Shown: positions 5,989 through 64,000, counted from the stretch's first letter. The stretch is 64,000 nucleotides of DNA from a virus (IMGVR_UViG_3300038435_000048:12277-76276), one strand, 5' to 3'. Made by a program: numbers and translations. The notes: generated by a model not told the origin, from the sequence alone.

Positions 5989-6000
5989 AATGGTATTATC

Positions 6001-7359: not shown

Positions 7360-7771
7360 TTTGTGGTATAAGCTAGTCGCCAGACGCCTGCAAGCCGATC
7401 ATACTCGTTTGGTGTCTGAGAGTATTGATCTGAATGTCACAATCAAAGGATTAGAACGCACAATCATTAGGCTTGAAGTTGATCTTAAAAACGTCAAAGC
7501 GACTAATGATAAACTGCGTACTGACATTAACACTCTTGAACATCCTACTTTTGTGGGTTCATGGGTGGGAGCACAGGCTCATGCTGCTAAGCAACGCAAT
7601 ACAGAACTTGAACGTCAACTCGGAAAGATGGATTTAGTACGTCAAGCACTCAAGAACGAAAAGGCGTATACTTTATTCCTTGAAGATTGTTTGCTGTGTA
7701 ATAATCCCTCCGACATTTTCAATGCTCTGCCGCTTGAAAAGCGTAAAGAGTATTTTGACAAAGTACAATGA
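7346..7771 (+). CDS. hypothetical coiled-coil protein
   Basis: Heptad-rich sequence (LERTIIRLEVDLKNVKATNDKLRTDINTLE). Confidence 0.4.
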   Translation: MSFANLWYKLVARRLQADHTRLVSESIDLNVTIKGLERTIIRLEVDLKNVKATNDKLRTDINTLEHPTFVGSWVGAQAHAAKQRNTELERQLGKMDLVRQALKNEKAYTLFLEDCLLCNNPSDIFNALPLEKRKEYFDKVQ

Positions 7772-44742: not shown

Positions 44743-44944
44743 ACTTCGTTCTTTTGCCGCCCTTGGTGCGATCGTCCCCTGCTTTGCAGGTTGGGCACTT
44801 GGCGACTTTTCGTGTAATGATGTAGATTTCATCGGGCTGTTCTCGTTCTGTCCCTGGGTGCAGCGTCACCTTTAATTGTCCACCGTAATAGCAACCGCGA
44901 CAGTTGCCGCATTCGATGAGCGTGACGGTCTTAGGCGTTTTCAT
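44732..44944 (-). CDS. Zn-ribbon small protein
   Basis: CGNCRGC ... CPTCKAG. Confidence 0.3.
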   Translation of the reverse strand: MKTPKTVTLIECGNCRGCYYGGQLKVTLHPGTEREQPDEIYIITRKVAKCPTCKAGDDRTKGGKRTKYEY

Positions 44945-45452
44945 GATGCAATCTTTTTTCTAGCAACTTGATGAGTCGCTTGACATGCAATGCTACTCCC
45001 TGGTGAGAGAGTCCATTATCCTTGGCAATCTTGCGGAATGATTTGCCTTTAACGTAATACTCAATCAAGAGGTTGGCGTGTGGGTCTTCTGCCACAGCAC
45101 TCAAGATCGTCTTCATCAATTCGTTTTCATCAATCGTCGTATCTAGATAGCCAGATTCGACATCGATAGGATCCGCGTCAGTTCGTCCAGGTGATAGCCT
45201 TGTCTTTTCAAGGATGTACCTGAGGATACGACCACGGATATAGTGATATGCATACGTCGTAAACTTCGCCTTGGTGGAGTCGTAGTTCTTTGAGGCTGTG
45301 AGTAGACCAACCCAGGCTTCTTGTTCTAGATCTTCATACGAGATTAGCGGATCGTTCTTTGCGTATACCAGGAAGGGACGTAGGATGCTGCTAATGAATG
45401 CGTCCCATTCACTTTGCTGTAAACAGTCTAAAGGACTATCTTTCATATGCAT
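44931..45452 (-). CDS. sigma-70 family (ECF-like) sigma factor
   Basis: Region 2 QEAWVGLLTASKNYD...FTTYAYHYIRGRIL and region 4 AKDNGLSHQGVALHVKRLIKLL. Confidence 0.65.
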   Translation of the reverse strand: MHMKDSPLDCLQQSEWDAFISSILRPFLVYAKNDPLISYEDLEQEAWVGLLTASKNYDSTKAKFTTYAYHYIRGRILRYILEKTRLSPGRTDADPIDVESGYLDTTIDENELMKTILSAVAEDPHANLLIEYYVKGKSFRKIAKDNGLSHQGVALHVKRLIKLLEKRLHHENA

Positions 45453-45813
45453 TAATCTGTGCCACCAGAAGGGTGATGTATGTTTGCTTTTCGTCGTCTG
45501 TGAGAGCGGACCAATGAGAGATGATATCCACGTTCCCACCGTTTGGCACTTCTTCGTTACCCACTACTTGGCGATGGCGATACAGGACGCGACCTTCTAC
45601 GTCTTGAACAATGAAGGTTAGAACTTTTAGTGATTCGTCGTCCATTAGATGCCAGCAGAACTTATACAGTTCTTTGAACTGCACTACTGCTTTCTTAGGC
45701 TTGCCACCTTTTTCGATTAAAATAAAGAGTAGCTTGTCATTTTTCTTCCAGCCATCGGCCTCCAGTTCGGCGTTAAGTTGCTTGACTCTATCCCAATTGA
45801 GTTTGATCGCCAT
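45436..45813 (-). CDS. hypothetical protein
   Basis: ORF. Confidence 0.35.
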   Translation of the reverse strand: MAIKLNWDRVKQLNAELEADGWKKNDKLLFILIEKGGKPKKAVVQFKELYKFCWHLMDDESLKVLTFIVQDVEGRVLYRHRQVVGNEEVPNGGNVDIISHWSALTDDEKQTYITLLVAQINAYER

Positions 45814-45849: not shown

Positions 45850-47106
45850 TCAAGCAACCTTTCCGTCTTCGATGTAGACTCCCATTCTATCCTGATCGTT
45901 CTTTGAGCGGTATTCAATCCACACTTGAAAGTCTTTGTCTACTGCCATGTCTCGAATCATTGCCATGGCATCATCGTCTAGCAAAGATCCGTCAGCAATT
46001 CTAATTACGCGGAGCGTAGGATTTGCCGCCATCGCAATAGCTAGCGAAATCTTCAAGCGACGTGCTGCTGACGCTTGACAGAACGGCACGTCTTGTCCGT
46101 CGTCATTAATGATGCGGACGCCATCAGCATTGATTGTGAATCCCTTGACGGGCAGTGGAGCCGCTTCTAGAGCCTCGGCCTTCTCAATCTCGATGAGTTC
46201 CATCTTGGCATTCAGCTTGCCAATATCCTCATCCACCTTATCGAGGGACGTACGCAGCTTCTTGTACTCAATGACTTCACGAGCACGCTTGTTGCGTCCC
46301 TCGATATCTTTGAGTTGACCTTGCAGGAAGGCTACGTCAATCGGTTCCACTCTCTCTAGCTCTGCTGTATTAGCCACAGTGATTGTATTAGCGTCAGCTA
46401 CAATCTTTTGAAGTCTTTCTATTTCACGTTGAGCATCGGCAATAGACTTAGCTGAGCGTTCATTCTCGGCAATCAAGTCCTTGATGCGTTGATTGGCACC
46501 TAGACCATGAGTAATTGCTGCCGTCACATCAGAACTAGCGATCTCTTCTGTTGGTTCTTGATCAGTCGGTGGACGTAGGTTAGCCAACAGACTAGCTAGC
46601 TGTTTCTTTTGACGGTTAGCATCGGTACGAGCATCATAAGCTTCCTGCTTACGAGCATCGAAGTCTGCAAGATTCAGTTTGCCATCGGTAATCTTGAAGA
46701 GAACATCTGACAGGAGTGTACGCTGCTCTTGTTCTGTCTTGCGTGCGAACTCCCATGGGTCAAACGAGAGATCGCCAATCATGCCATCAAGTAGTTTTTG
46801 AGGCGATGGCAGTTTAATTCCGTCTGGTGAACGAATCTCTAGCGTACTATCCTCACCAGTAAATCGTCTCGTGGCAATGTAATCGCCTAAATCTAATGAG
46901 ATTAGGCTCTTTGTTTCACCCTTACGGATTGGTTCAGGATTCTTTTTGGCTGCTGCACGATACTCTAACACAGACCAAATTGCATCCAGTACTGATGTCT
47001 TGCCATTCTCATTTTTGCCTGAGATAATGACACAACTATTGTCTGGAGTAATGTCAACGACCTTAAGTCGCTTGTAATTCTCGGCGTGAAACTGGATGAT
47101 TCTCAT
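45850..47106 (-). CDS. SbcC/Rad50-like (AAA_23) recombination ATPase
   Basis: MRIIQFHAENYKRL...ISGKNENGKTSVLDAI Walker A, coiled-coil middle, C-terminal signature/D-loop region. Confidence 0.65.
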   Translation of the reverse strand: MRIIQFHAENYKRLKVVDITPDNSCVIISGKNENGKTSVLDAIWSVLEYRAAAKKNPEPIRKGETKSLISLDLGDYIATRRFTGEDSTLEIRSPDGIKLPSPQKLLDGMIGDLSFDPWEFARKTEQEQRTLLSDVLFKITDGKLNLADFDARKQEAYDARTDANRQKKQLASLLANLRPPTDQEPTEEIASSDVTAAITHGLGANQRIKDLIAENERSAKSIADAQREIERLQKIVADANTITVANTAELERVEPIDVAFLQGQLKDIEGRNKRAREVIEYKKLRTSLDKVDEDIGKLNAKMELIEIEKAEALEAAPLPVKGFTINADGVRIINDDGQDVPFCQASAARRLKISLAIAMAANPTLRVIRIADGSLLDDDAMAMIRDMAVDKDFQVWIEYRSKNDQDRMGVYIEDGKVA

Positions 47107-49410: not shown

Positions 49411-50010
49411 TCATTGCGTCAGTCTTTCAATGACATCTGCTTGAGACAAAACCTTGCGGAACTTATGTAGGACTCGGAAGCAAACAATAGAGTCGTACAG
49501 AGCCGCGTGGAACTTTCCCTTGCCTAGATCAGACAGATCGATCTTGAACGCCTTTGATGCTTGTGTTAGACTCGCACCACTCTTCACGTTGTCGTTGCCA
49601 GTGAATAGTCTTACGACTGGTAGACCGTCAATAAAACGATACGTGAAATTGGCTTCGAACTGTTGTGGTTCGACCTTATAGATGCCGTGTGCCATCATGC
49701 GAACATCGAAAGGACAATTCCATCCGCCCATAATTTGGGCACCATGGGCATGCCACAAATCCATGAACTTATTCTGGATCTCTTCGGTAGTCAAACCTTC
49801 CGCAAAAGCTTGTGAAGGTGTGATGCCATGGATCTCTACAGCCTTGGCCGTAAACTTGTAGTCGTCAACGGAGGGTAGCTTGTGTAGAGCTTCAAACTGA
49901 GAAATGATCTCACCAGTTTCGAGGTCTCCAACGAGAGCACCCACAGAGAATACTGAATGAGCCTTTGGATCTAGGCCACCAGTTTCCGTATCGAATACCA
50001 TAATTCTCAT
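49411..50010 (-). CDS. DnaQ-like 3'-5' exonuclease (DEDDh)
   Basis: MRIMVFDTETGGLD exo I motif, WNCPFDVRMM exo II and HAALYD exo III. Confidence 0.75.
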   Translation of the reverse strand: MRIMVFDTETGGLDPKAHSVFSVGALVGDLETGEIISQFEALHKLPSVDDYKFTAKAVEIHGITPSQAFAEGLTTEEIQNKFMDLWHAHGAQIMGGWNCPFDVRMMAHGIYKVEPQQFEANFTYRFIDGLPVVRLFTGNDNVKSGASLTQASKAFKIDLSDLGKGKFHAALYDSIVCFRVLHKFRKVLSQADVIERLTQ

Positions 50011-52407: not shown

Positions 52408-52594
52408 ACACCTTCTCCAGTTCCTTGACGATGGCAATGAAATGTGGCATGGCAGACTCTTTACCGCCTCTAACCAGATTAGACTCGGCAATAGCTAGGT
52501 TCGACAGCACGACGCAATACTCTTGCTGTAGACGTGCAGCCTTATCGTTGTGCGTGTAGACAATACGCAGTGGTTTGTTCTCAGGATTTTTCAT
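52358..52594 (-). CDS. hypothetical small protein
   Basis: ORF. Confidence 0.3.
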   Translation of the reverse strand: MKNPENKPLRIVYTHNDKAARLQQEYCVVLSNLAIAESNLVRGGKESAMPHFIAIVKELEKVYGFEFRTIDTALPQTD

Positions 52595-52845
52595 TCCACA
52601 CTACTCACTTTTTTCACGGTCCAAGTAATACAATCTGTCAAAATACTCTCTTCGCTGAACCACTCGCCGGCCAGCGTCATGATTCTTCGATTGCAGAAGT
52701 CGTTTGCTAGCTCCTGAGATTCAAACGGTCCCCACACAATCGGCCACTTGCGTGCCGGCGTGTTGATACCTAGCTCCAACACTACCCAGTGCTCAATCGA
52801 CCGCGATTGTTTTGGTTTGCTCATCCTTAACCTTGTCCAGTACAA
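52591..52845 (-). CDS. hypothetical small protein
   Basis: ORF. Confidence 0.3.
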   Translation of the reverse strand: MYWTRLRMSKPKQSRSIEHWVVLELGINTPARKWPIVWGPFESQELANDFCNRRIMTLAGEWFSEESILTDCITWTVKKVSSVE

Positions 52846-53872
52846 TCTTCCAAATCTTATCGTTCATTGGCTTGGCGTCCATGAGACCAAACACAATACC
52901 CGTTAGGACGTTCGGCGTGTTAGCCTGGATCCATAGAGCCTTCGTCTTACGATCCCCTTCTGGGATTCGTGCAACGATATCCTCAGCCTCGATACGAAGC
53001 TTGTCGTGCATGGTCTGCACGTACGCACGGATATCATCGAAGTCTTGCTGGATTCCCTTCGGTAATTCCAGCAAGGTAACACCGAATTCCTTGCCACGGA
53101 TTAGTTCAATGACACCCTTAGGGCTCATGTAGTTTAGCAAGCGGTGGACTCGTAGATATGCAGGCGACTTCACCTTTACGCGGCGACCGCTTGCAAAGCG
53201 AGCGACGTAACCTTCTGCGTTTTCCTCGAAAGGAATTTCGCCACGAAGGTCCACGTTATAGCGGCGAGGGCGACGAAAGCCACACTTCTCCGCGATTTGA
53301 TCTACCCTACGAGGGTGCCACTCCTCGCCGCTAAGCTCGAAAATGGCTAGCAGAGACAAGAAGCTTTCGCCTTGATAGTCTACAACGATACGGTTCGAAG
53401 GATAGATGATCTCGAATACTGGCGTACAATTCTTAGGCAGATGCTCTAGACCGTCGCGATATTGTAGATTCAACATCAACGTACCATGGAATGCTTGATC
53501 AGACTCCATGCTGCCCGGCGTGGACAAACGCCACTCGGGATGTACCTTGTTCAATCCAGGCGTAAAGTAGCCAATGCCGCACGAGCCGTCTACCTTTTCG
53601 TAGATCTCCACTTCCTCATGCCATGGCAGATTTTCTACCATGGATTCTGAAACCTCACCGAGGTTAAAGAACTTGGAAAATGGGCGTGCAACGACAGTGC
53701 CGTCCTCACGCATGATTAGACCGCGAGCCTGACGGTTTACGTCGTTCCAAAGCCCTTGGATATGAGTATCCTGGGTGTACTTGAAGATGGCGAGGTCGCC
53801 CGAGCGTTGAACGCTCACGCGGCCCTCGTCCACTTCCTTCAAGAGCGACTTGTATAGAATGTAGTCCTTCAT
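52793..53872 (-). CDS. RNA ligase, Rnl1-like (tRNA repair ligase)
   Basis: Motif I YEKVDGS (KxDG), motif IV EGYVARF, motif V RVKVKSP. Confidence 0.6.
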   Translation of the reverse strand: MKDYILYKSLLKEVDEGRVSVQRSGDLAIFKYTQDTHIQGLWNDVNRQARGLIMREDGTVVARPFSKFFNLGEVSESMVENLPWHEEVEIYEKVDGSCGIGYFTPGLNKVHPEWRLSTPGSMESDQAFHGTLMLNLQYRDGLEHLPKNCTPVFEIIYPSNRIVVDYQGESFLSLLAIFELSGEEWHPRRVDQIAEKCGFRRPRRYNVDLRGEIPFEENAEGYVARFASGRRVKVKSPAYLRVHRLLNYMSPKGVIELIRGKEFGVTLLELPKGIQQDFDDIRAYVQTMHDKLRIEAEDIVARIPEGDRKTKALWIQANTPNVLTGIVFGLMDAKPMNDKIWKIVLDKVKDEQTKTIAVD

Positions 53873-53962
53873 GTCAATCGTTTCCGACGCCCAATAGACG
53901 TAGGGCGATAGAACAGACTATCACAACAACCGCTATGATGCCAACTATTTCCAGACAACTCA
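53873..53962 (-). CDS. micro-ORF, 28-aa hydrophobic peptide (MSCLEIVGIIAVVVIVCSIALRLLGVGND)
   Basis: ATGA-coupled to the cca stop and ends at the Rnl1 start. Confidence 0.3.
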
Positions 53963-55213
53963 TCACATAACCTTGGATCTTGCTTGTTCCATCTTGGCAC
54001 GAATCTTATCGCCGTCCTTTAGAACAGCGAACTGATCTCCCTTGACACTACGGAATCTAGCAGCGGCGTCAAGCATAGCCTGACGTTGCGGATAGGGTTG
54101 GTCGTGAAACAGAGGACCCCGACCTTGAGCGTCAGCTTGTGCGGCCAACGTCACACGTTCGACCATAGCGTCGCCGTGTGCGGCACCTAGACGTTCAAGT
54201 ATACGAACCTTCGTCGTTGGACGAAGCTCCATAAACTTGTGGACATTCAAGTGTTCGCGTGAAGCGGCAACCCCCACGTCTCGCATCGTGTTTGGTGCCT
54301 TAACCCTATCACAAAACTTGTGAACCAGAGGTACGCCAAGTGCTTCGTGATTGTAGTGGTGCGGCAGGTTGTCGTCGTCCGTTACAGCCTTGCCCAGATC
54401 ATGGACAAGCGAAGCGAACATGGTAGCATCATCGGCTCCCAATTCACGGGCTCTATCCACAACCAGCAACGTATGCACGAATGCATCGCCTTCCGGGTGA
54501 TACTTCTCAGGTTGAACGCGACCCTTTAGAGCAGCGATTTCTGGGAATACAATGTCAAGACACTGGAACGCATCCAGCACTTCGAAGAACTGACTAGGCT
54601 TATCCGAACGGAGGGCCTTCATAAGCTCATCGAAGACACGCTCTTGCGAGAGCGTGGGAAGCTCGAAACTCAAGTATTGACACATGCGAATTAGCTCTTG
54701 CGAAGGCTGAAAGCCAAGCTGGGCTGCGAACCTTGCGGCACGCAGAACGCGAAGCGGATCCTCCACGAAGTGGTCGCTCACTGGACGCAATACCTTTGCG
54801 AGCAAATCCTTTTGCCCACCATACGGGTCAATGATTTCGCCATGAATAGGCTCCATGGCAATCGCATTGATCGTAAGGTCACGACGGAATAGATCTTGTT
54901 CAAGCGTGACGTTTTGCGTCTCGCAAACAAAACCCGTGTGTCCTTGTCCCATCTTGCGTTCGACGCGAGCCAGGGCAATCTCGACACCATCGACAATCAC
55001 AATAGGGAAGTCCTTGCCCACGGCGTCGCCGTTAGGGAAAAGTTCCAGCAATTGTGGCATCGTCATACCGACGACGCACAAGTCGATGTCCTTGGCCGTC
55101 TTACCCATAAGGTAGTCCCGAACGCTGCCACCGACAACGTACGAACGCCCACCGGCCCCGTGAATGCGGGCCAGGATGGCAACCAGATTATCCCATTCAG
55201 GAACCTGTCTCAT
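53963..55213 (-). CDS. cca: CCA tRNA nucleotidyltransferase with HD domain
   Basis: GGSVRDYLMGKTAKDIDLCV, RRDLTINAIAM head motifs; HD domain FASLVHDLGK. Confidence 0.8.
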   Translation of the reverse strand: MRQVPEWDNLVAILARIHGAGGRSYVVGGSVRDYLMGKTAKDIDLCVVGMTMPQLLELFPNGDAVGKDFPIVIVDGVEIALARVERKMGQGHTGFVCETQNVTLEQDLFRRDLTINAIAMEPIHGEIIDPYGGQKDLLAKVLRPVSDHFVEDPLRVLRAARFAAQLGFQPSQELIRMCQYLSFELPTLSQERVFDELMKALRSDKPSQFFEVLDAFQCLDIVFPEIAALKGRVQPEKYHPEGDAFVHTLLVVDRARELGADDATMFASLVHDLGKAVTDDDNLPHHYNHEALGVPLVHKFCDRVKAPNTMRDVGVAASREHLNVHKFMELRPTTKVRILERLGAAHGDAMVERVTLAAQADAQGRGPLFHDQPYPQRQAMLDAAARFRSVKGDQFAVLKDGDKIRAKMEQARSKVM

Positions 55214-55232
55214 AGCAAACTATACCATACGG

Positions 55233-55679
55233 TTACGGCGTCGTCAACTTCTTTCTCAGTTCCATGAGAAGCTTGCCCAGGAAATTGTTTCCCTTCCCAT
55301 TGCACACTCCCCAGTAGGTGTCGCCCCAGGCATTACCTTCAATCAATTCGGCATCGCCTGTCGCAATCAGTGCCTTACGAAGATCGTCATTGTCGAATTT
55401 AGCTTCCAAAATAGAAGCCATCTGAGCGAGCTTAATCTTGTCCCAATTAGGACGAAGCTCTAGAGCTTGTCCAAGGTGCTTGGACATTCCCGCAGTCATA
55501 AAAGGAAACGTAAAGACGTAACGTGCTTTTTGATTCAGAGTTTTGGCTGCTTGGTATGCGTGCTCAGAGGAGGGATAGACATGCCCCTCATAAACCACAG
55601 AGCAAGCATAGAAGTTACTGAGAAACTGATACTCGCCATCAAACTTATCGATCTTCATAGCGACTGCACTCCGTGACAA
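55233..55679 (-). CDS. NADAR (YbiA/DUF1768) domain protein
   Basis: FLSNFY...EHAYQAAK ... GDTYWG motifs. Confidence 0.65.
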   Translation of the reverse strand: MSRSAVAMKIDKFDGEYQFLSNFYACSVVYEGHVYPSSEHAYQAAKTLNQKARYVFTFPFMTAGMSKHLGQALELRPNWDKIKLAQMASILEAKFDNDDLRKALIATGDAELIEGNAWGDTYWGVCNGKGNNFLGKLLMELRKKLTTP

Positions 55680-55926
55680 CGTTGAAGACTAGTGGCGACA
55701 CAATAGGACCAGCCTGAGACCGCCAGAAACAAACTGACCGCACCTTGCTAAGGTCAACGGACATTTGCGTAAACCCCGGCTTGTCCTCCTCGCCGTCAAA
55801 CGGATCGCCCGGCACGATTCCTGGCTGAACGAACGTTTGGAGATCCTGTTCGAACAAGACCATGCCGTGCTTGCAATTCCAGCACTTGCTATCCTGCGGC
55901 TTTGCTACTTCTTCATTCTCCGGCAT
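55645..55926 (-). CDS. hypothetical protein with CxxC
   Basis: ORF with a CWNCKHG motif. Confidence 0.3.
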   Translation of the reverse strand: MPENEEVAKPQDSKCWNCKHGMVLFEQDLQTFVQPGIVPGDPFDGEEDKPGFTQMSVDLSKVRSVCFWRSQAGPIVSPLVFNVVTECSRYEDR

Positions 55927-56428
55927 ATTCTTCTTCACTTTCAAGCGGTTGGTATTTGTTGATTTGCTTTTGCACAACTTCAATGCTAACGCCATGAGCG
56001 TTCCGAGAAGCAAAGAGCTTAGCGTCCCATGGCCCCTTGATACGATAGACCTTTACTTCGTATCCGAATTCCTTGGCGAACGCCAAATAGGGATTGAGTT
56101 CCCAACGGGTCATGCTCGTATTGGACACGACCAAAAGCTCTTCGTCTCGTTCCATAGCGGCTCGCACACGATGCTGACAGTCGCCATGTGCCTGTCCTAG
56201 CTTAGCCGCATCGAACTGATACGTACCATTCTTGTAGAAGAAATGGTCAGCTTCGAACACACGTTCGTCCACGCCACTGTCATACTCACTACCGAGTAGC
56301 TTATGAGCGAGGGTAGACTTGCCAGACCCCGAGGGACCACGAATGATGATAAGCTTCTTCATCCTTCCATAATACCACGAGAGCGACCCTTCGTCAAGGT
56401 CGCTCTCGTTTTTTCTTGAAACAGACAA
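55913..56428 (-). CDS. P-loop polynucleotide-kinase-like kinase (AAA_33)
   Basis: LIIIRGPSGSGKSTLAHKL Walker A; size and pattern like the Pnk kinase domain or zeta toxin. Confidence 0.55.
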   Translation of the reverse strand: MSVSRKNESDLDEGSLSWYYGRMKKLIIIRGPSGSGKSTLAHKLLGSEYDSGVDERVFEADHFFYKNGTYQFDAAKLGQAHGDCQHRVRAAMERDEELLVVSNTSMTRWELNPYLAFAKEFGYEVKVYRIKGPWDAKLFASRNAHGVSIEVVQKQINKYQPLESEEEYAGE

Positions 56429-56431
56429 GAC

Positions 56432-56818
56432 TCAGAAGAGTTTGCCTTCTCCTGTGCCAGCCGTAGCCTCAGCGGGAGCACCTTCCTTGTCAGCGGGCTT
56501 ACCGCTACCGACAAAGCTGAATCCGCCATAGTTTTCGAGCACGACTTCTAGCTTGGAACGCTTCTCGCCTTCCTTCGTCTCCCAACGGTTTTGACGCAGG
56601 GAGCCCTTCACTAGCACTTGCTTGCCCTTCGTGAAGTATTCCTTGATGGCTTCGACTTGCTTGCCGAAAGCCACACAGTCAACGAATGCCGTTTCCTTCT
56701 TTTCGCCAAAGCCATTGTTAACGGCGATGGTAAAGCGGGCCACGTTTTCTTCCTTGCCGACGATCTCAGGATCAGCGACCAAGTTACCTTGCAAAGCTAC
56801 CAAATTCAAACTAGTCAT
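56432..56818 (-). CDS. ssb: single-stranded DNA-binding protein
   Basis: LNLVALQGNLVADPE...RFTIAVN OB fold and an acidic/Gly-rich C-terminal tail. Confidence 0.85.
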   Translation of the reverse strand: MTSLNLVALQGNLVADPEIVGKEENVARFTIAVNNGFGEKKETAFVDCVAFGKQVEAIKEYFTKGKQVLVKGSLRQNRWETKEGEKRSKLEVVLENYGGFSFVGSGKPADKEGAPAEATAGTGEGKLF

Positions 56819-56825
56819 ATCTACC

Positions 56826-57197
56826 TCAGTTAGTTACGGTTTGTGACGCCTTTACTGAGGCGATCACTTCTTGAAGAGCCTGCTCACGAGTGAGCACGCC
56901 ATCCTTGTGTCGTTGGCATTGCTCACGATTCATGCGGAATCTACGGGCTACGCCTGTCTCCGCTTTCACTCGTTCCGAGAAATTCTCTACCGTCAAACCA
57001 TCAGCTAGATAGATCGACAGCGGAATCTCAGGCTTACGGGGCTTGAGGTTAGCGGCTCCACCGCTAGCCAAAAACTCAGCAAATGCCTGCTCTCTAGTCA
57101 GAGTACCATTTGCAATACGTTCGTGCTGTGAATTGTTCACACGAAAACGATATCCAGTCTTCGCATTGAAGTTCTCCAGCGTTAGTTCATCACTCAT
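56826..57197 (-). CDS. hypothetical protein with a tandem ~55-aa internal duplication
   Basis: Repeats NGTLTREQAFAEFLAS / DGVLTREQALQEVIAS. Confidence 0.4.
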   Translation of the reverse strand: MSDELTLENFNAKTGYRFRVNNSQHERIANGTLTREQAFAEFLASGGAANLKPRKPEIPLSIYLADGLTVENFSERVKAETGVARRFRMNREQCQRHKDGVLTREQALQEVIASVKASQTVTN

Positions 57198-57311
57198 TGT
57201 TACCAGCCTCCATACAGCTATTATGACAATCTCAGCGTCTAATGTCTATCCCAAACCAGAATTCGTAGGAAGGGTAGTTAGACTCTAAACTTACTCAAGA
57301 CCTTGAGTGTT

Positions 57312-58193
57312 TCAAGGCTTCATATTCAGCATCGTGGCAAAGTCGCCTCCCATGACCTGGGGCGGCGTACCATTCCACTTCTCGATCGTGCGGTAACGTA
57401 CGAGTTCTGGTGTAAGCGACTTGGTGAGTTCTAGGTTGCCTCGGGCCTCAAGCTGCATCGCTTCAAAACGACCTTGAGCCTCAATAATCACGGACTGGCT
57501 ACGGCCACGGGCGGTTTCAATCGCTTGGTCGGCTTCGGCCTTCGATTGTACGACCTTGTTCTGGGCAGAGATGGCAAACTGCGTCGCTTCAATAGTCGCA
57601 TTGATACTACCCATGACGCTCTTGTCGGCACGCGGAGCACCAACGAAAGACACCATTTCGAACTTGAAGCCAAGATGGCCTAGACGGCTATTGAGATCAT
57701 TCGTGACGTTTTCGAGCAGACCTTGCTTGCCAGAGCCGAAAATATCAATCACTCGTACCATGCTCGCATGACGGTTGAACGCATTGCGAACTTCCGAGCG
57801 TAGATAGACCAAGGTGATATCTTCGATGCCCTTGCGGAATTCCACGAAAACGTGCGGGACCTTTTCCGGATCAATCGCATAGCTGATCGCAACGTCAGCA
57901 TTTACGATGGCACCCTCAGAAGAGTTAAACGTGATGCTTTCGTCAGCATCGCCAGCACTGCTGTCCGGGCCTTCGTTCGGATCCTTCGTCCATACCACGT
58001 TCTGACGGAACGTCGGGAATTTGTAGACATCCTCAGTGAAGATGTTGTACCAAACGCGACCAGTCTGAATCGGGAAGTCGTCTACTCCCTTTTGACTGCC
58101 GTATTGGTTGACCTTGATCCCGACGTAGCCGGGTTCCACCTTGGTGCAGGCAACGGCCAGCAGAGCAAGACACGCAATCAGCATATTCTTCAT
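57312..58193 (-). CDS. SPFH/band-7 domain lipoprotein
   Basis: Lipobox LLAVAC; SPFH core plus a C-terminal Ala/Glu-rich coiled coil (AQNKVVQSKAEADQAIETARGRSQSVIIEAQG). Confidence 0.65.
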   Translation of the reverse strand: MKNMLIACLALLAVACTKVEPGYVGIKVNQYGSQKGVDDFPIQTGRVWYNIFTEDVYKFPTFRQNVVWTKDPNEGPDSSAGDADESITFNSSEGAIVNADVAISYAIDPEKVPHVFVEFRKGIEDITLVYLRSEVRNAFNRHASMVRVIDIFGSGKQGLLENVTNDLNSRLGHLGFKFEMVSFVGAPRADKSVMGSINATIEATQFAISAQNKVVQSKAEADQAIETARGRSQSVIIEAQGRFEAMQLEARGNLELTKSLTPELVRYRTIEKWNGTPPQVMGGDFATMLNMKP

Positions 58194-58194
58194 G

Positions 58195-58386
58195 TCAGAT
58201 GAATTTCTTGATAGAAAACTTGAGAATGTGAAAATCCACAAAGATGATCAGAACGATCAAAAACAAGCCTGCAATGTTAGCGAGCGTATTAGCCGCCGAC
58301 ATTAGGAAGGCTAGCAGGTCCAACCCCAGAAGTGAAACAATCACTAGCAGGACTAGACTTGAAATGAATAGAAAGGGGTGTTTCAT
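58195..58386 (-). CDS. small multi-TM membrane protein (NfeD-like partner?)
   Basis: Hydrophobic FLFISSLVLLVIVSLLG...IAGLFLIVLIIFV; coupled to the SPFH gene. Confidence 0.4.
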   Translation of the reverse strand: MKHPFLFISSLVLLVIVSLLGLDLLAFLMSAANTLANIAGLFLIVLIIFVDFHILKFSIKKFI

Positions 58387-59462
58387 AGGTCTTCGTTCGC
58401 ACGGAACACGATACCAACCGGGAAACGCGGAACGCCGTCGTCGGTGCGATCGAAGAAGCGGACCGTCAGTTTCTTGCCAATGAATTTCTTGTTTTGGGCA
58501 AACATGCGGCGACGTTCGTCCATCGTCACCTTCATGGTGCAATCGAAGGTTTCGTCGTTTGTATCATTCTGGCAAATCCAGATAATACCACCCTCCATCT
58601 TGCCGCGACCCTCTTTGGCTCCAATTACCTTGAATTCGGCATCTTGGAATTCCTTGACCTTGAGCAATTCCGATGAACGATAACCCCAGAGGTAGCGACC
58701 ATGATATAGCCGCAGAATTGCACCTTCATAGCCCTCTTGCATAAATTCGCCATATCGCAGAATCATCTCATCGTGCGACTTGACGTTGTATCCTGGCACA
58801 AGCTCTACATTAATAGAGGTTTTCACACTATGCATCATAAGACGATCGGCATATGTGAGGCCGTCTTCGCCATCTAGCACTGGCACGTCATAGACGTTAT
58901 AGATAATCTTTTCGCTACCGGGCTGCCACTTCTTAACAAGAGAAGTCACTTGTTGACAGGTCATACCGTGTCGATAAAGCTCGCCATCGAGCACCATATC
59001 CTTAGGCAGCCATTTAGCTAATTGCTCTTCTACCGTTGGCATATTCCAAGGTAGGCCAGATCGCGAAGTCAGTAGAATCTTATTGCCTGACCATTCGGCT
59101 AAACAACGTACGCCGTCTAGCTTAGGCTGTACCCAAGCCGGGAATTCTACCTTTTTCTTTTTGTCTTCGTACTTATGAGCTAACATCGGAAGCCGCAGTT
59201 CTTCCTGGGCGTCTTCCTTGGTTTCGCTGTATTTTCTCTTGACCTTGAAACGCCAGAGCGATTCAGCCTCGGCTTGGGCCTGAGACTCAGGTGTGGTCTC
59301 GTTCGACCGTCCTACGTTCTTGGAGACGGCTTTTTTCGAGGACGTTTGAAGCTTTCCACCAACCTGACCGTATTCGGTGTAGATTGTGTCCTTTTCGTGC
59401 CAAACACGCCACTGACGAAGATCGCCGCCTTTGGCTTTATGGTATAAGATGGGAAGTTTCAT
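58383..59462 (-). CDS. ATP-dependent DNA ligase (minimal T7/Chlorella-virus type) with an N-terminal extension
   Basis: KLDGVR motif I; C-terminal KEFQDAEFKVIG and GKKLTVRFFDRTDDGVPRFPVGIVFRANED match ChV ligase motifs. Confidence 0.75.
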   Translation of the reverse strand: MKLPILYHKAKGGDLRQWRVWHEKDTIYTEYGQVGGKLQTSSKKAVSKNVGRSNETTPESQAQAEAESLWRFKVKRKYSETKEDAQEELRLPMLAHKYEDKKKKVEFPAWVQPKLDGVRCLAEWSGNKILLTSRSGLPWNMPTVEEQLAKWLPKDMVLDGELYRHGMTCQQVTSLVKKWQPGSEKIIYNVYDVPVLDGEDGLTYADRLMMHSVKTSINVELVPGYNVKSHDEMILRYGEFMQEGYEGAILRLYHGRYLWGYRSSELLKVKEFQDAEFKVIGAKEGRGKMEGGIIWICQNDTNDETFDCTMKVTMDERRRMFAQNKKFIGKKLTVRFFDRTDDGVPRFPVGIVFRANEDL

Positions 59463-60562
59463 TAGTGGTGCTCCGTGCCACCCTTACGGGTGAGGTAATC
59501 GGGCGAAATCACCTTGAAGATACGACGCTTCGGATTCGGATCAAGTTCACCACGACCCCAGGTTTCTTCACCTAGCGGACGCACGACGATCCCTTCCTTA
59601 ATTTGACCAGGAGACAGTACGCTCTCACCTTCTGCCATTTCACACAATTCCTCGAAAGTGTAAAAAGAAGGATTTAGGTGTGGCACAATTGGGATGCCGT
59701 ATAGCGTGCATACCTCGCGAACATACGTCCACGGCAGATAGTCACCATTAATGGCAATGTCAAAAACACGCCAAGCCTTTTCCGTGCCGTATGTCAAGTC
59801 CTGTACGCCAGGACCAAAGATTTCACCAAAGAAGATTACCGACTTAACCTCGACGGGAGGCTTGTCGCCCATAATCTCTGGAATAATCTTGTCAAACGTG
59901 GCGTTATCAAGGGCTTCGCCATAAAGCTCGAAAGGCAAGCCATACACGCCGCTATCTTCGACTTTGCGTTGCGTGCGGTGTGAGCCGACAACTCTTTCAA
60001 GGTAATCGCTCATCCCACCATTTTCAGGATCGGGAGTTCGCACCCAACCAACACGACTATTTGAGCCGTGTAGCTTTTCGGTCACGATCAAAGGATCGCC
60101 GTAATTCAGAGCACGCGGATAATTTCGCAAGTTCTGAATATCCGTGTACGTATGGAACAGCGGGTGATTGCGGGACATCTGCCCCGCCTGCATGCCGATC
60201 GGCACGGGCTCTTCGTACTTTTCGATACCAAGGGCTTCGGCGAGATTAGTGTCGACTTCTGCATTCGTGTCGTTAGGAGCTAAAAATCCGAAACTTGGTG
60301 CTCCTCTGAGCCGCACGCACTTTACACGTCCTTTGGTGGCGTCTTTTTTCCATGAAAGGTAAGGTGTAACCGCCCATTGATCTGCCAATTCCTTAGGCAC
60401 CATCACATCAGGCGGCACATGTATCGCGGTTTGGCCCGCAATATAGTTTCCCTTGCCAGATACGATTTGCCAGCCGCCAAGCCTGATAATTTCAAGCTTA
60501 TCAGCATTCGGATGCGGCAGTACCTCGTCGATCACGACGACTCTCACTAGAAGATCGCTCAT
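59462..60562 (-). CDS. RNA ligase (Rnl5/Rnl2-like) with an N-terminal tRNA-binding OB domain
   Basis: N-terminus VIDEVLPHPNADKLEI...QIVSG matches the Trbp111/CsaA-type tRNA-binding domain. Motif I VTEKLHGSN, motif IV EGIVVRP, motif V KRRIFKV. Confidence 0.6.
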   Translation of the reverse strand: MSDLLVRVVVIDEVLPHPNADKLEIIRLGGWQIVSGKGNYIAGQTAIHVPPDVMVPKELADQWAVTPYLSWKKDATKGRVKCVRLRGAPSFGFLAPNDTNAEVDTNLAEALGIEKYEEPVPIGMQAGQMSRNHPLFHTYTDIQNLRNYPRALNYGDPLIVTEKLHGSNSRVGWVRTPDPENGGMSDYLERVVGSHRTQRKVEDSGVYGLPFELYGEALDNATFDKIIPEIMGDKPPVEVKSVIFFGEIFGPGVQDLTYGTEKAWRVFDIAINGDYLPWTYVREVCTLYGIPIVPHLNPSFYTFEELCEMAEGESVLSPGQIKEGIVVRPLGEETWGRGELDPNPKRRIFKVISPDYLTRKGGTEHH

Positions 60563-60655
60563 AGTTACATGATATCCTGTAAAGCGTGTTCTGTCAAGCT
60601 CAAAGGTATAACATTTCCAAACTTAGTGTATTTGGAATTAGGATGGAGTTATACA

Positions 60656-61192
60656 ATGGGTAATCCTCGAAAATTGTCGTTGACGTGTAAGAACTGTGGT
60701 ACTGCTTTCTCTGGATCCGTTACGATTGATGGAGTCAGACGAAAGCTTAGCAAATCGCGTTATTGTCTAACCTGTTCACCTTGGCAGGGTCCGGGTGCCA
60801 CGAAACGACAGCTAACCAAGTACAAGACTATTGATAGTGTAGAGCACAGACTTTGTTCTAGGTGCAATCAGTTCAAGCCATTGACAAAAGAGTTCTTTAC
60901 ATTCAGACCAAGTGGCAGAGTTGATTTCTGCAAGCCGTGTATGGCAGACAAAGTACGTATTGCGGCACGCGAAGATAAGTTGCTGTGCATTGAATACAAG
61001 GGCGGTAAGTGCGAGGATTGTGGTGGAGTATTCGCTCCGGGCGTCTATGATTTTCACCATTTAGAGCCACACACGAAAGAATTCGCTATCTCTCGTAAGA
61101 TGCGTAGGTCATGGGAGACGCTCAAAGCTGAACTTGATAAGTGCGTTTTGCTTTGTGCTAATTGTCATAGAATACATCACTCGAATTTGTAG
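60656..61192 (+). CDS. HNH endonuclease
   Basis: YDFHHLEP...CVLLCANCHRIHH; GGAG RBS upstream; opposite strand to all its neighbours. Confidence 0.65.
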   Translation: MGNPRKLSLTCKNCGTAFSGSVTIDGVRRKLSKSRYCLTCSPWQGPGATKRQLTKYKTIDSVEHRLCSRCNQFKPLTKEFFTFRPSGRVDFCKPCMADKVRIAAREDKLLCIEYKGGKCEDCGGVFAPGVYDFHHLEPHTKEFAISRKMRRSWETLKAELDKCVLLCANCHRIHHSNL

Positions 61193-62609: not shown

Positions 62610-64000
62610 TTACTCTGAAACGCGAGCCCGAATTTGGGCGAGCGTATTTTGGAAGCCTTCGCGACCGTCTTCAAAGACGACGTTGAAGGAACAATTGTTG
62701 ACTTGGTACCAAGATGCCTGTTGCGTCATCTTGATGCCTTCGCCGGGCATATTGTATACAGCAATAAGACCCTTCGCGGACTTCTTGCTGAAAGCACCCT
62801 TGTTCGTCTTCGGATCTTTGAAGATCTCACGGTCTTCGGTATTCACCACGCCGAAGGTGGCCTTCATTGCAAAACCGAAGGTGTCGCGAGTGTTGTACTG
62901 ATACGTGTAGCTGCCGATACCGGCGACCCAGTTCGTGCTGGCGAAGCCCTTGGCCTTGAGAGCCGCGTTGATTCGCTTGGCGAGGTCTCGCGTGATCGAG
63001 TCACCGTAGATGAGGCCGATGTGCGAGTCAAGCTCACGGTAGCCAGCGGCGTTCGTGGTACCTCCGAAGAGTTCCCACAGGACTTCGATCGACCCCTTGA
63101 ATTCCGGCGAGCCGGGCGTTGCGTCAGGATCGCCGCAGATGATCTCCAAGGGCGTCTTGGGCGACGAGTCGGGGCGAATGACAAGCTTGCCGTTTCGAGC
63201 CAGAATCTCGCCCTTGAGTTGCGGCAAAATAGTGGTCAAAACTCCCCAGTAGTCCCAAGTGTCCGACACAACCGACAGGATGCCATTCGGGTAGAGCGAG
63301 AAGAGGCGACGGAAGGTCTCGATTTCGCCTTCCTTGGTCCCCATGCACATGACCGAGTGCTCAGTCGCCGGAACGCTCACTCCGACCAATTCCTTGTCGG
63401 AATCGGCGAAGTAATACTGTTCCAAGAATTCGATCGCAGGAACGGTATCCGTTCCAGCGAACGAGAGAAGGTGACCGGCACCGCTCAGGCAAGCCGACTC
63501 AAGGCTCGACATCCCACGGAACGAGAAGTCGTGGCCCTGGAACATCGTGAAGTCCTGCGAGCCACCAGTTTCACTGGCTGCTCGCAAAAATTCCTTGCGG
63601 TATTCGCGGGCGATCGTGGCCGACGTGCAAGCCTGCCACAGCGTGCAAGACAGGATCGTTTCCAGGTAGTTCGGGAGCCAGAATCCGCTCTCGTGCGTGC
63701 TGTGAATCACGACGGGCGGCGTTCCGATCGGCACTCGCGTGCCTTCCGGCAGGGCCAGAATTCGAATCGGCAGATATCCGAGAGCGTGAAGCTCTCGGAT
63801 GTGATCCATCGGCACGGCATCTTTGCCGAGGGCGTTGTCCACACGACGCTTGTACTTCGCGACCACTTCTTCGACGGGACGCGAGAAGAAATTCTCGTTC
63901 CACTGCTTGACCAAGTATTCCTTGATGAAATACTGGAGGCCGAAGAACACCACGCTGTCCACGCCTTCCAGGCGAGACGAACGAGGCGTGAAGTTCGAGA
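62610..64000 (-). CDS. nadV: nicotinamide phosphoribosyltransferase, 5'-truncated by the window edge
   Basis: VVFFGLQYFIKEYL, GTDTVPAIE, ATEHSVM, IYGDSIT align with the NAMPT family. The N-terminus with the DSYK motif lies beyond the window. Confidence 0.75.
   Translation of the reverse strand, partial: SNFTPRSSRLEGVDSVVFFGLQYFIKEYLVKQWNENFFSRPVEEVVAKYKRRVDNALGKDAVPMDHIRELHALGYLPIRILALPEGTRVPIGTPPVVIHSTHESGFWLPNYLETILSCTLWQACTSATIAREYRKEFLRAASETGGSQDFTMFQGHDFSFRGMSSLESACLSGAGHLLSFAGTDTVPAIEFLEQYYFADSDKELVGVSVPATEHSVMCMGTKEGEIETFRRLFSLYPNGILSVVSDTWDYWGVLTTILPQLKGEILARNGKLVIRPDSSPKTPLEIICGDPDATPGSPEFKGSIEVLWELFGGTTNAAGYRELDSHIGLIYGDSITRDLAKRINAALKAKGFASTNWVAGIGSYTYQYNTRDTFGFAMKATFGVVNTEDREIFKDPKTNKGAFSKKSAKGLIAVYNMPGEGIKMTQQASWYQVNNCSFNVVFEDGREGFQNTLAQIRARVSE

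Follow-up and report, generated by a model that had tools for sequence, protein, structure and literature searches.

Does a cluster of genes in a large uncultivated phage repair damaged tRNA, and which protein would then do the work of the phosphatase that the cluster seems to lack? The question is raised by a 64,000-nucleotide stretch of viral DNA (the window), in which a polynucleotide-kinase-like protein, a NADAR protein, a CCA-adding enzyme with an HD domain and an RNA ligase had been noticed close together. All of the ORFs named in the original prediction are present on the minus strand, and their family assignments were borne out; the four principal genes are real, conserved and endowed with the predicted catalytic residues. 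Orthologues that are 43-79% identical occur in unchanged order in about ten related phage contigs, which argues that the genes are under selection, and this conservation of gene order stems mostly from a single phage lineage. T4 Pnkp and Rnl1 constitute the classic tRNA repair pathway. The reading that we favour, and to which comparison of sequences gives roughly even chances, is that the window encodes a modular tRNA-damage repair kit that follows the T4 Pnkp/Rnl1 logic, with end-healing split between two proteins; most likely it is a variant of the T4 pathway and not a new kind of system. In such a kit, a 149-aa kinase of the Pnk clade would phosphorylate the 5'-OH, the HD domain of the CCA-adding enzyme would remove the cyclic or 3'-phosphate, Rnl1 or a nearby Rnl5-type ligase would seal anticodon-loop nicks, and the CCA enzyme would use its nucleotidyltransferase half to rebuild damaged 3'-CCA tails. 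The damage would most likely be inflicted by host defence nucleases; that the target is a PrrC/RloC/colicin-type nuclease is conjecture. The argument draws on family membership, intact catalytic residues, gene order, gene fusions and patterns of presence and absence.

The predicted sealing enzyme is a 359-aa ATP-dependent RNA ligase of the Rnl1 family (52793..53872, minus strand). It matches PF09511 RNA_lig_T4_1 (E 2e-17) and, over its full length, phrog_562 (E 8e-59; residues 14-356 of the protein against 19-372 of the 377 profile positions), as well as the T4 Rnl1 structures 2c5u and 5tt6 at E about 1e-12 (8e-13 for 2c5u). The ligase motifs noted earlier are real (K93-V-D-G, E220-G-Y-V and K233-V-K235). 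R54, K75, F77, K99, D101, G102, E159, E227, G228, K240 and K242 of T4 Rnl1 correspond to R50, K67, F69, K93, D95, G96, E154, E220, G221, K233 and K235 in the window; these 11 residues, all of them kept, are essential in T4 Rnl1, and T4 K119 is replaced by P119, a proline found throughout the clade. Together with the structure matches, this motif-level alignment identifies the ORF as a true Rnl1-family ligase. Its closest homologues in cultured phages (Streptomyces phage LukeCage) adjoin a 296-aa gene annotated as polynucleotide kinase, which has the length of the bifunctional T4 enzyme. An alternative sealing enzyme may be provided by the Rnl5-type (DRB0094/NgrRnl family) RNA ligase with an N-terminal, putatively tRNA-binding OB domain at 59462..60562 (minus), which matches PF09414 (E 4e-16), PF21189 (E 4e-9), the Naegleria RNA ligase 5cot (E 3e-10) and TIGR02306 (E 9e-40, with 136.6 bits against a cut-off of 151). 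Profiles also confirmed the two other neighbours that had been reported, an SSB (56432-56818) and an ATP-dependent DNA ligase (58383-59462).

The kinase ORF, a P-loop protein of the AAA_33 family, was first called at 55913-56428, and its true start is almost certainly the ATG at 56362 (MKKLIIIRG...), because all homologues and an identical JGI protein (P0001, 149 aa) begin there. The resulting stand-alone kinase (55913..56362, minus; 149 aa) matches AAA_33 (E 5e-11) and the polynucleotide kinase family phrog_505 (E 2e-11), and its family profile aligns with residues 1-143 of T4 Pnk in hhalign (probability 98.2%, E 6e-14). The best Foldseek matches of its AF2 model (pLDDT 93) are the kinase of C. 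thermocellum Pnkp (4jt2, E 8e-8) and T4 Pnk, with the small-molecule kinases PFKFB and gluconate kinase close behind in the fold ranking. The P-loop and D39 (T4 D35) are invariant in the family, and the alignment puts F42 at the position of T4 Pnk R38, the residue that binds the acceptor 3'-phosphate; an R38 equivalent is absent. No T4-type phosphatase domain was found on the protein. The hhalign and Foldseek results place it in the polynucleotide-kinase clade, not among the small-molecule kinases, and this kinase-only protein is a predicted 5'-OH end-healing enzyme. The identical JGI protein is named 'NEDD4-binding protein 2', and the NONU-1 preprint places the N4BP2/NONU-1 kinase domain in the PNK clade.

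The CCA-adding enzyme (53963..55213, minus; 416 aa) combines a class II nucleotidyltransferase with an HD domain (PolyA_pol, PolyA_pol_RNAbd and HD). It matches the NCBIfam 'multifunctional CCA addition/repair protein' NF008137 (E 3e-115, positions 3-398 of 409), scoring 385 bits under an equivalog cut-off of 451, and shares architecture, length and 43% full-length identity with E. coli Cca. Conservation extends to every transferase and HD residue that was checked, including D42/D44 (E. coli D21/D23), E151-D-P-L-R155, H247, H271-D272 (E. coli H255-D256), H286, H289, H321, H325 and D361, and the alignment establishes an enzyme of the E. coli multifunctional type with its HD site intact. Unlike E. 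coli Cca, it is encoded by a phage, between genes for a Pnk-clade kinase and an RNA ligase, and relatives occur as kinase fusions, 2H fusions or HD-only proteins. According to Yakunin 2004, cited in PMC6961547, the HD domain of E. coli Cca removes 2',3'-cyclic phosphate. This activity is known on mononucleotides only, the proposed site of action is the acceptor 3' end, and CCA addition to nicked tRNA is about 1000-fold slower (PMC6961547), which makes HD action at an anticodon-loop break hypothetical.

No T4-type HAD phosphatase was found in the 64-kb window, in any related locus or within 10 kb of the 80 phage CCA loci whose 10-kb neighbourhoods were surveyed; one could be encoded elsewhere in the genome, of which the window covers 64 kb out of perhaps 100-180 kb, judging from the relatives. 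The proposal that the HD domain takes over the role of the absent phosphatase is supported by comparative evidence of three kinds, namely fusions, HD-only forms and kinase/CCA-HD adjacency. Fusion partners of the kinase family include the cyclic phosphodiesterases tRNA_lig_CPD, 2H-SAK and CNPase and, in 13 huge-phage protein clusters (P0191, P0214-P0225), PolyA_pol+HD; P0191 shares 39% identity with the window kinase (E 2e-29) and, over about 450 aa, 26% with the window CCA-HD protein (E 2e-21). The related locus L024 encodes an HD-only protein of 222 aa, with no remnant of the transferase, that shares 55% identity with the window CCA enzyme (residues 194-383); its gene lies downstream of the kinase, from which it is separated by a VWA gene and one for tRNA-Ser, and directly before Rnl1. 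The HD-only form is also found in L050 and L056, and in relatives such genes adjoin Rnl1 or sit one gene away. In unrelated contexts, the kinase ORF overlaps the start of the CCA-HD gene (L038), or a CCA-HD gene is followed by a small Cys-rich ORF, a putative calcineurin-type phosphatase recognized by eye and the kinase (L087). Of the 44 surveyed CCA loci that bear an HD domain, 13 have the kinase within 10 kb, against none of the 36 without a detectable one (Fisher p 1.7e-4 raw, 0.054 with lineages collapsed), and an Rnl1-type ligase is found within 10 kb of the CCA enzyme in 16/80, 8 of them outside the window's lineage. From this we infer that the kinase and the HD domain are probably a tightly coupled pair, with Rnl1 as a frequent, replaceable partner.

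No RNA ligase is encoded within 10 kb of the kinase-CCA-HD fusions, which implies that healing need not feed Rnl1, and the L038 pair likewise lacks one nearby. Both would suit an arrangement in which the kinase and the CCA-HD protein form a ligase-independent unit restoring the two acceptor-stem termini, with Rnl1 as a separate repair arm. The kinase would supply the 5'-phosphate, the HD domain would remove the 3' phosphate, the transferase would rebuild CCA, and in some relatives a Thg1-like polymerase would refill the 5' strand; Thg1-like tRNA 5'-end repair genes do lie beside the kinase or the HD gene in L024 (just upstream of the kinase) and L050. Such a unit would counter cleavage in the tRNA tail or acceptor stem, for example by Cas12a3 (PMC12851939); tRNA-tail cleavage is a real anti-phage strategy, and the acceptor end is where the CCA enzyme is known to act (PMC6961547). 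We nevertheless consider this arrangement doubtful, since the HD-only variants have lost the CCA-adding half and keep an adjoining Rnl1, which fits nick healing better, and since the kinase family is also fused to cyclic phosphodiesterases typical of nick-repair and splicing enzymes. In addition, no defence nuclease is known to us that would create a 5'-OH at the 5' end of a tRNA. A role for the CCA enzyme in routine maturation or turnover of the phage's large tRNA set, with the kinase and ligases serving unrelated RNA or DNA tasks, has been proposed in part for phage RaK2, in the case of its CCA enzyme (PMC3622015), and in relatives 5-13 tRNA genes do lie no more than 8 kb from the block, which includes a conserved DEDD exonuclease. 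However, CCA is encoded in 44/44 tRNA genes of these arrays, as in the cognate tRNA genes of E. coli, so that synthesis from scratch is unneeded and the role indicated is repair, not maturation; the exonuclease resembles DnaQ/PolC proofreading domains and not RNase T specifically, and neither the HD-only derivatives nor the kinase fusions are explained, which makes this role very improbable.

T4 and C. thermocellum Pnk act on DNA too, and the window kinase directly follows the SSB gene at 2 kb from the ATP-dependent DNA ligase, while 1.7 kb separates a distant homologue (P0050) from an NAD-dependent DNA ligase. The kinase might thus heal 5'-OH ends of nicked phage DNA together with SSB and the DNA ligase, but there is little to recommend this, given that the family's fusion partners are RNA-specific (2',3'-cyclic phosphodiesterases, CCA-HD) and that its tight linkage is with CCA-HD, a DNA ligase being undetected near the kinase in most lineage loci. 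A broader challenge comes from the variability of the locus. One relative is a clean deletion of the CCA gene (L005, otherwise L004) and in another Gad2 and Acb5 occupy the Rnl1 position (L017), which indicates that the gene set is modular and does not form an obligate unit; NADAR is present in 3/9 lineage loci, and the small ORFs separating CCA and Rnl1 differ among relatives. This gene-by-gene pattern would be expected if independent counter-defence and nucleic-acid-metabolism genes, acting alone or with host enzymes, shared a variable early region and no common pathway. Gad2 and Acb5 are known anti-defence genes, T4 is similarly loose (DNA ligase, NADAR gp30.3, pseT and rnlA within about 12 kb) with a NADAR that has its own function, and the kinase and the CCA gene are each directly preceded by their own sigma-70-like promoter match on the minus strand (56369..56397, 10/12 matches with TG, 5' of the kinase ATG; 55219..55247, 10/12 matches with an extended -10 TG), as found by a consensus scan that returned 15 sites in the region against 8.2 +/- 2.7 expected. 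Independence is still unlikely in our view: it leaves unexplained the kinase-CCA-HD fusions in an unrelated huge-phage clade, the retention of the HD half alone beside or one gene from Rnl1, the overlap in L038 and the restriction of the kinase to the vicinity of HD-bearing CCA enzymes.

The split-healing kit shares with T4 Pnkp (pseT) and Rnl1 (rnlA), which act against PrrC, a homologous Rnl1 that preserves motifs III, IV and V and the catalytic lysine, a homologous kinase domain (hhalign 98%), a heal-then-seal logic and an early-gene setting in which a DNA ligase and a NADAR gene are also found. Unlike T4, the window has no HAD (DxDxT) phosphatase, its kinase stands alone in the N4BP2-like/AAA_33 branch, the candidate 3' healer is the HD domain of a CCA-adding enzyme, the equivalents of Pnk R38 and Rnl1 K119 are not kept, and a second, Rnl5-type ligase is present. 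According to PMC6097658, which describes the work of Munir and Shuman 2017, Runella slithyformis HD-Pnk joins an HD phosphoesterase to a P-loop 5'-OH kinase, heals both ends and is encoded next to an ATP-dependent ligase. The likeness is one of domain type: Runella has both on a single polypeptide, which lacks a nucleotidyltransferase, and the window has them as separate genes, the ligase families differ, and the huge-phage fusions have the order kinase-transferase-HD. The healing domains of fungal and plant Trl1 and vertebrate CNPase (in each case a Pnk-clade kinase with a 2H cyclic phosphodiesterase) share the kinase clade, as does the N4BP2/NONU-1 kinase domain; unlike Trl1 and CNPase, the window kinase has no 2H domain, and its proposed HD partner would yield a 2'-OH/3'-OH end instead of a 2'-phosphate. 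Iyer et al. 2021 (PMC7824862) and 2022 (PMC9503650) describe, as answers to tRNA-cleaving defences, jumbo-phage Rnl1/Rnl2/RtcB ligases, polynucleotide kinases, CCA-adding enzymes, NADAR and phosphatases of the HAD, 2H, cRec and, occasionally, HD types. The available portions of these papers do not name the HD domain of the CCA enzyme itself as a healing partner and contain no kinase-CCA-HD fusions or HD-only derivatives, of which an earlier description is possible, for instance in Burroughs and Aravind 2016.

The NADAR protein (55233..55679, minus), which had been counted among the members of the repair cluster, is optional and better read as an independent neighbour. It matches PF08719 (76.5 bits, cut-off 35.1), belongs to the YbiA subfamily, with E. 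coli YbiA (2b3w, E 1e-20) a stronger match than 8bau (E 1e-5), the other NADAR for which the PDB has a structure, and contains a SEHAYQAAK motif in which E and K are spaced like the catalytic pair of PMC11543638. NADAR enzymes have been demonstrated to free guanine of ADP-ribose, in DNA as well as RNA (PMC11125620, PMC11833690), and those of phages counteract DarT1 (PMC11825919). Similarly to T4 gp30.3/AdfN (PMC11825919, PMC11125620), the protein is a single-domain NADAR with an E...K motif, encoded in an early region near ligase and RNA-repair genes. Apart from the window, it occurs only in L027-L029 among the lineage loci, and is most likely a separate ADP-ribose-removing counter-defence enzyme.

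Between the kinase and the CCA/NADAR genes lies a conserved ORF that had been overlooked (55645..55926, minus), encoding a 93-aa protein with four invariant cysteines (C15-x2-C18, C66 and C87) and an acidic linker. It has no match in Pfam, PHROG or PADLOC and an AlphaFold pLDDT of 43, and homologues occupy the same position in L002-L007, L016 and L017, and also in 8/9 lineage loci of the survey, which suggests a conserved accessory. By contrast, the 30-aa hydrophobic micro-ORF with a GTG start (53874..53966, minus), also proposed as a cluster member, is a doubtful call without a counterpart in the related loci searched by tblastn, and is probably outside the system; in L002 and L003 the CCA gene directly overlaps Rnl1. 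A terminator-like hairpin (56433-56454, minus) follows the SSB gene.

The row of minus-strand genes originally predicted at 52793-56428 is present, and its family assignments agree with Pfam, PHROGs and NCBIfam. It consists of an Rnl1-family RNA ligase (52793-53872), a class II CCA-adding enzyme with an HD phosphohydrolase domain (53963-55213), a NADAR protein (55233-55679) and a P-loop AAA_33 kinase (ORF 55913-56428). The kinase ORF stands except for its start, which is moved to 56362, as in all homologues. A 30-aa micro-ORF that had been counted as a member of the cluster has no counterpart in any relative and is therefore dropped, and an ORF absent from the original prediction is added (55645-55926, minus strand), which is conserved and encodes 93 aa with four invariant cysteines. 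The product of the latter has the pattern CxxC ... C ... C with an acidic middle, and its gene lies between the kinase and the CCA/NADAR genes across the lineage; it matches no family, and its AlphaFold2 model has a pLDDT of 43. The wider row includes genes for an SSB, an SPFH protein, an ATP-dependent DNA ligase, an Rnl5-type RNA ligase, an HNH endonuclease and a nicotinamide phosphoribosyltransferase (NAMPT). Of the genes in the block, only the HNH gene (60569-61192) is on the plus strand; flanked by the Rnl5-type ligase and a sulfotransferase-like gene, it probably encodes a mobile homing endonuclease. Within 52-61 kb, the four highest-ranking sigma-70-like promoter matches, which like the terminator sites are consensus matches only, are all on the coding minus strand and immediately precede the Rnl5 ligase (60569-60597), orf123 (57220-57248), the kinase (56369-56397) and the CCA gene (55219-55247), an arrangement that suggests early transcription in several short units. 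A Megablast search with 52500-60600 gave no match among 50,697 phage records, so the phage lacks close relatives among cultured phages; a protein identical to the kinase was found on a 76-kb JGI metagenome contig. In a PADLOC scan, which was otherwise uninformative, the kinase weakly resembled the N-terminal part of a CARF-PDDEXK-AAA model.

As proposed, the kinase is related to T4 Pnk, and its family profile aligns with T4 residues 1-143 (hhalign 98.2%, E 6e-14). The P-loop and the catalytic Asp (D39, corresponding to T4 D35) are invariant, and the lid Arg (R120) aligns with T4 R122 by hhalign or R126 by MAFFT. The position of T4 Arg38, which we take to bind the acceptor 3'-phosphate, is occupied by F42 (hhalign) or a gap (MAFFT). 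The structural model has a pLDDT of 93, and seven of the top eight Foldseek matches are chains of the C. thermocellum Pnkp kinase or of T4 Pnk (E 8e-8 to 2e-6); small-molecule kinases come next at E ~4e-6, so the separation from Pnk is modest. Fold and family domain partners place the protein in the polynucleotide-kinase clade (AAA_33/N4BP2-like), and it is predicted to be a 5'-OH RNA/DNA kinase. T4-type bifunctional Pnkp possesses a HAD phosphatase domain, whereas the 149-aa window protein stops after the kinase domain and lacks the C-terminal HAD (DxDxT) 3'-phosphatase. Furthermore, tblastn with T4 Pnkp residues 151-301 found no match in the window, the related loci or 80 phage CCA loci.

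The CCA enzyme likewise fits its assignment, being 43% identical to E. coli Cca end to end with intact motifs. The class II transferase motifs GGxVRD (V27-G-G-S-V-R-D33), DxD (D42/D44), RRDxxxN (RRDLTINA) and the [ED]DxxR template motif (E151-D-P-L-R155) are invariant with E. coli Cca, and the HD residues H247, H271-D272, H286, H289, H321, H325 and D361, counterparts of E. coli H231, H255-D256, H270, H273, H305, H309 and D345, are kept in four phage orthologues. The best NCBIfam match, 'multifunctional CCA addition/repair protein' (NF008137), is aligned over its full length and reaches 385.3 bits against a cut-off of 451, which makes the enzyme a related subfamily and not an equivalog. The HD domain of E. 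coli Cca allows the removal of 2',3'-cyclic phosphate from tRNA 3' ends, and CCA addition is ~1000-fold slower on nicked tRNA (PMC6961547). In the relatives, tRNA arrays adjoin the block and 44 of 44 tRNA genes encode CCA (one after correction of its ARAGORN boundary), on which basis a role of the CCA enzyme in maturing phage tRNAs is rejected in favor of a repair function, as in E. coli. ARAGORN and Rfam detected no tRNA and no known RNA in the window; by synteny, a tRNA array probably lies just past position 64000. The gene at 49411-50010, considered as an RNase T partner of Cca, is unsupported in this role, as its closest structures are PolC/DnaQ exonuclease domains.

Some of the tRNAs of the relatives are unusual, since tRNA-Lys(UUU), tRNA-Lys(CUU) and tRNA-Asn(GUU) measure 89-91 nt and have an extended variable arm resembling that of class II tRNAs (L004 5651-5739 and 1963-2051, L003 975-1065, L007 2364-2453, all loci of the window's lineage). 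In bacteria, a long variable arm is not known as a normal feature outside the Leu, Ser and Tyr tRNAs. PrrC and PARIS attack tRNA-Lys, and colicin E5-type nucleases attack tRNA-Asn; the long-arm Lys and Asn tRNAs could be nuclease-evading tRNA bodies.

The ligase motifs attributed to the 52793 ORF hold in alignment to T4 Rnl1 (PF09511/TIGR02308 family). Motif I with the adenylated lysine (K93-V-D95-G96, T4 K99-E-D101-G102) is invariant in four phage orthologues, and the same is true of motifs III, IV and V (E154, E220-G221-Y222 and K233/K235) and of the Rnl1-specific upstream residues R50, K67 and F69 (T4 R54, K75 and F77). Identity to T4 Rnl1 thus extends to R54, K75, F77, K99, D101, G102, E159, E227, G228, K240 and K242. 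The sole difference among the residues checked is T4 K119, which is proline in all four orthologues and throughout this clade; from T4 mutagenesis work we assume K119 to be essential, and a literature search on Rnl1 Lys119 found nothing. The C-terminal helical domain of Rnl1 confers tRNA specificity. This domain is probably present, because the alignment to phrog_562 (T4 gp63 family) is full length (ligase 14-356, profile 19-372 of 377); the C-terminal third, aligned by MAFFT, has few invariant residues, the Pfam and PDB matches end near residue 250, and the protein scores 55.7 on TIGR02308 against a cut-off of 242. The second RNA ligase is of the Rnl5 type with an OB domain, as predicted, with PF21189 (6-96) and PF09414 (157-352) both above their cut-offs. 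It displays the Rnl5 layout (DraRnl/NgrRnl, DRB0094) of an N-terminal OB and a nucleotidyltransferase domain without a C-terminal OB, matches NgrRnl (5cot) at E 3e-10, and scores 136.6 bits on TIGR02306, slightly below the cut-off of 151.

The NADAR domain (PF08719, 76.5 bits against a threshold of 35.1) is closest to E. coli YbiA (2b3w, E 1e-20), and its S-E-H-A-Y-Q-A-A-K stretch, matched by eye, has the i/i+7 spacing of E88/K95 (PMC11543638). Four NADAR subtypes, three bacterial ones including YbiA and T4 gp30.3, remove ADP-ribose from guanine (PMC11125620), T4 gp30.3 (AdfN) counters the DarTG1 defence (PMC11825919), and ADP-ribosylation of RNA guanosine is also reversed by NADARs (PMC11833690). 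Prior computational work proposed that NADAR might be linked to NAD-dependent RNA repair. Its membership of the repair cluster, as originally claimed, is not borne out: NADAR occurs in three of the nine surveyed lineage loci, and this patchy presence argues for an independent neighbour. T4 is alike in this respect, as its NADAR gene, gp30.3, is an independent neighbour lying some kilobases away from pseT and rnlA.

The gene order of the window recurs, at identities of 43-79%, in about ten contigs (100-180 kb) from related phages. The order is SSB, kinase, four-cysteine ORF, NADAR where present, CCA-HD, small ORFs in some cases and Rnl1, followed by a deoxyribosyltransferase-like gene, a dNMP kinase and a DEDD exonuclease. 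The block is modular; locus L005 equals its relative L004 minus the CCA gene, a clean deletion. In another relative, L017, the Rnl1 position is taken by Gad2 (anti-Gabija) and Acb5 (6454-6834, 10118-11124), so that this slot stands out as a hot spot of anti-defence genes, and a cREC_REC gene lies upstream. NAMPT is intact in the window (62610-63962, 450 aa) and split into 277- and 258-aa ORFs in the two closest relatives (L002 3276-4941, L003 3252-4917), possibly through a frameshift, an insertion or a fault in the assembly. Synteny within a single lineage is weak evidence of common function, and evidence was therefore sought outside it.

A kinase-family profile search over 1.84 billion representative proteins retrieved 17,409 members, mostly stand-alone proteins of 135-160 aa. 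Among 20 of the longer proteins in the 150 best matches that were scanned with Pfam, five have 2',3'-cyclic phosphodiesterase domains (tRNA_lig_CPD, 2H-SAK, CNPase), with which kinases that heal RNA ends are classically paired, and one (P0191) combines the kinase with PolyA_pol and HD domains, with 39% identity to the window kinase and 26% over ~450 residues to the window CCA-HD enzyme. This fusion is common to 13 protein clusters, which sit on huge-phage contigs of up to 507 kb with polyvalent ART proteins, and no RNA ligase was found within 10 kb of the fusions. In the same search, a 2H phosphoesterase was found fused to 13 CCA-HD enzymes. The extra length of ~670-aa CCA-HD proteins (P0239) was tried as a diverged kinase and rejected (hhalign probability 0.1%). 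Further CCA-HD proteins of 700-970 aa (P0307, P0310, P0313, P0314, P0315, P0324 and P0326) contain PF01551, PF05257 or PF13539, presumably the peptidase M23, CHAP and peptidase M15 cell-wall hydrolase domains; with this unusual architecture, they might be virion-delivered tRNA repair enzymes.

The HD half also occurs by itself. Locus L024, which belongs to a more distant relative, has the order Thg1-like tRNA 5'-end polymerase, kinase, VWA protein, tRNA-Ser, HD-only protein and Rnl1, in which the 222-aa HD-only protein shares 55% identity with the HD half of the window CCA-HD enzyme (residues 194-383) and is without a trace of the transferase; the form recurs in L050 and L056. A tRNA-Ser(GCU) gene occupies the exact place of the missing transferase half in L024, and a Thg1-like 3'-5' polymerase belongs to the HD-only clusters at L024 1339-5641 and L050 9911-12388. 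Separate kinase and CCA-HD genes are neighbours in other loci as well. The L038 kinase gene runs into the start of the CCA-HD gene in an unrelated context, and L087 has CCA-HD, a small Cys-rich ORF, a calcineurin-type phosphatase and a transglycosylase-like gene (both read by eye) and the kinase. The Cys-rich ORF of L087, directly 3' of the CCA-HD gene, looks unrelated to the 93-aa four-cysteine protein. Across 80 phage CCA loci, a kinase lies within 10 kb of 13 of the 44 with an HD domain and of none of the 36 without a detectable one (p 1.7e-4 raw, 0.054 after lineages were collapsed); with the BLAST thresholds used, HD or phosphatase domains that have diverged may be overlooked. An Rnl1-type ligase lies within 10 kb of 16 of the 80 loci, eight of which are outside the window lineage.

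Taken as a whole, the evidence best supports the reading that kinase, HD domain, Rnl1/Rnl5 ligases and transferase make up a modular kit for tRNA repair, which has about an even chance of being correct. The kinase would give the 5'-phosphate, the HD domain would clear the 3' end, the nicks would be sealed by Rnl1 or the Rnl5-type ligase, and the transferase would rebuild CCA tails. The best-supported part of it is the putative kinase-HD coupling, for which the fusion, the retention of HD-only forms and the repeated adjacency all speak at the sequence level. It is improbable that the genes are just independent neighbours in a variable early region. The link of the kinase-HD pair to Rnl1 and anticodon breaks is weaker, because the kinase-CCA-HD fusions occur without a nearby ligase. 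The same ligase-free fusions favor a ligase-independent unit for acceptor-stem repair, which we nevertheless consider unlikely. Routine tRNA maintenance is very unlikely, as the CCA already encoded in 44/44 of the relatives' tRNA genes speaks against it, and a role of the kinase in DNA end healing is equally improbable.

Beyond the repair kit, the Cca-type HD domain may be a general RNA 3'-end healing module that phages have repeatedly coupled to a Pnk-clade kinase, a broader reading with a somewhat less than even prospect. The coupling would have arisen in three ways: as adjacency (the window lineage, L038 and L087), as a trifunctional kinase-CCA-HD fusion (the 13 huge-phage clusters), and as HD-only proteins with Rnl1 next to them or one gene off. 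By analogy, Runella HD-Pnk is a biochemical precedent for healing by HD plus kinase (PMC6097658). It joins HD and kinase in one polypeptide, whereas the window has separate genes and the P0191 clade fuses kinase, transferase and HD in that order. The RNA repair sets of large phages have been catalogued and include Rnl1, kinases, occasional HD phosphatases, CCA enzymes and NADAR (PMC7824862, PMC9503650), and a CCA enzyme, Pnk and RNA ligase were reported together in phage RaK2 (PMC3622015). What seems new is a stand-alone N4BP2-like kinase coupled to the HD domain of a CCA enzyme, with fused and HD-only variants, although an earlier description is possible.

tRNA cleavage is increasingly recognized as an anti-phage strategy, employed by PrrC, RloC, PARIS, Schlafen nucleases and, on tRNA tails, Cas12a3. 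To our knowledge, T4 Pnkp with Rnl1 is the sole biochemically worked-out phage repair route, and the in vivo role of the Cca HD domain has only been proposed. Cleavage of tRNA tails by Cas12a3 is a documented anti-phage mechanism (PMC12851939). If kinase and CCA HD are a healing pair, they would represent a second phage way of assembling a tRNA repair pathway and would give the HD domain of bacterial-type CCA enzymes a physiological function, with the fused, split and HD-only forms as natural test cases. The broader reading, if true, would reveal an uncharacterized tRNA repair enzyme family for both anticodon-loop and acceptor-end damage, and likewise a physiological role for the Cca HD domain. 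The idea extends known biology without overturning it, and its practical value is modest, perhaps in novel enzymes that repair RNA ends in sequencing chemistry.

Elsewhere in the window, peptide deformylase and methionine aminopeptidase genes adjoin each other, and a sigma-70-family factor, PhoH and a class II (B12-dependent) ribonucleotide reductase are also encoded; together these genes occupy 41269-42698, 44931-45539 and 40576-41265 on the minus strand and 28111-30072 on the plus strand. A 418-aa ATPase (45850-47106, minus strand; phrog_1499), kept in relatives as AAA_15/AAA_23, has an N-terminus like that of AriA/PtuA/GajA-type defence ATPases. Finally, the plus strand at 1339-10016 holds at least five glycosyltransferase genes within 9 kb, four GT1 and one weak GT2 below the Pfam cut-off; one of the glycosyltransferases has a DUF4214 domain, and they may serve DNA or surface glycan modification.
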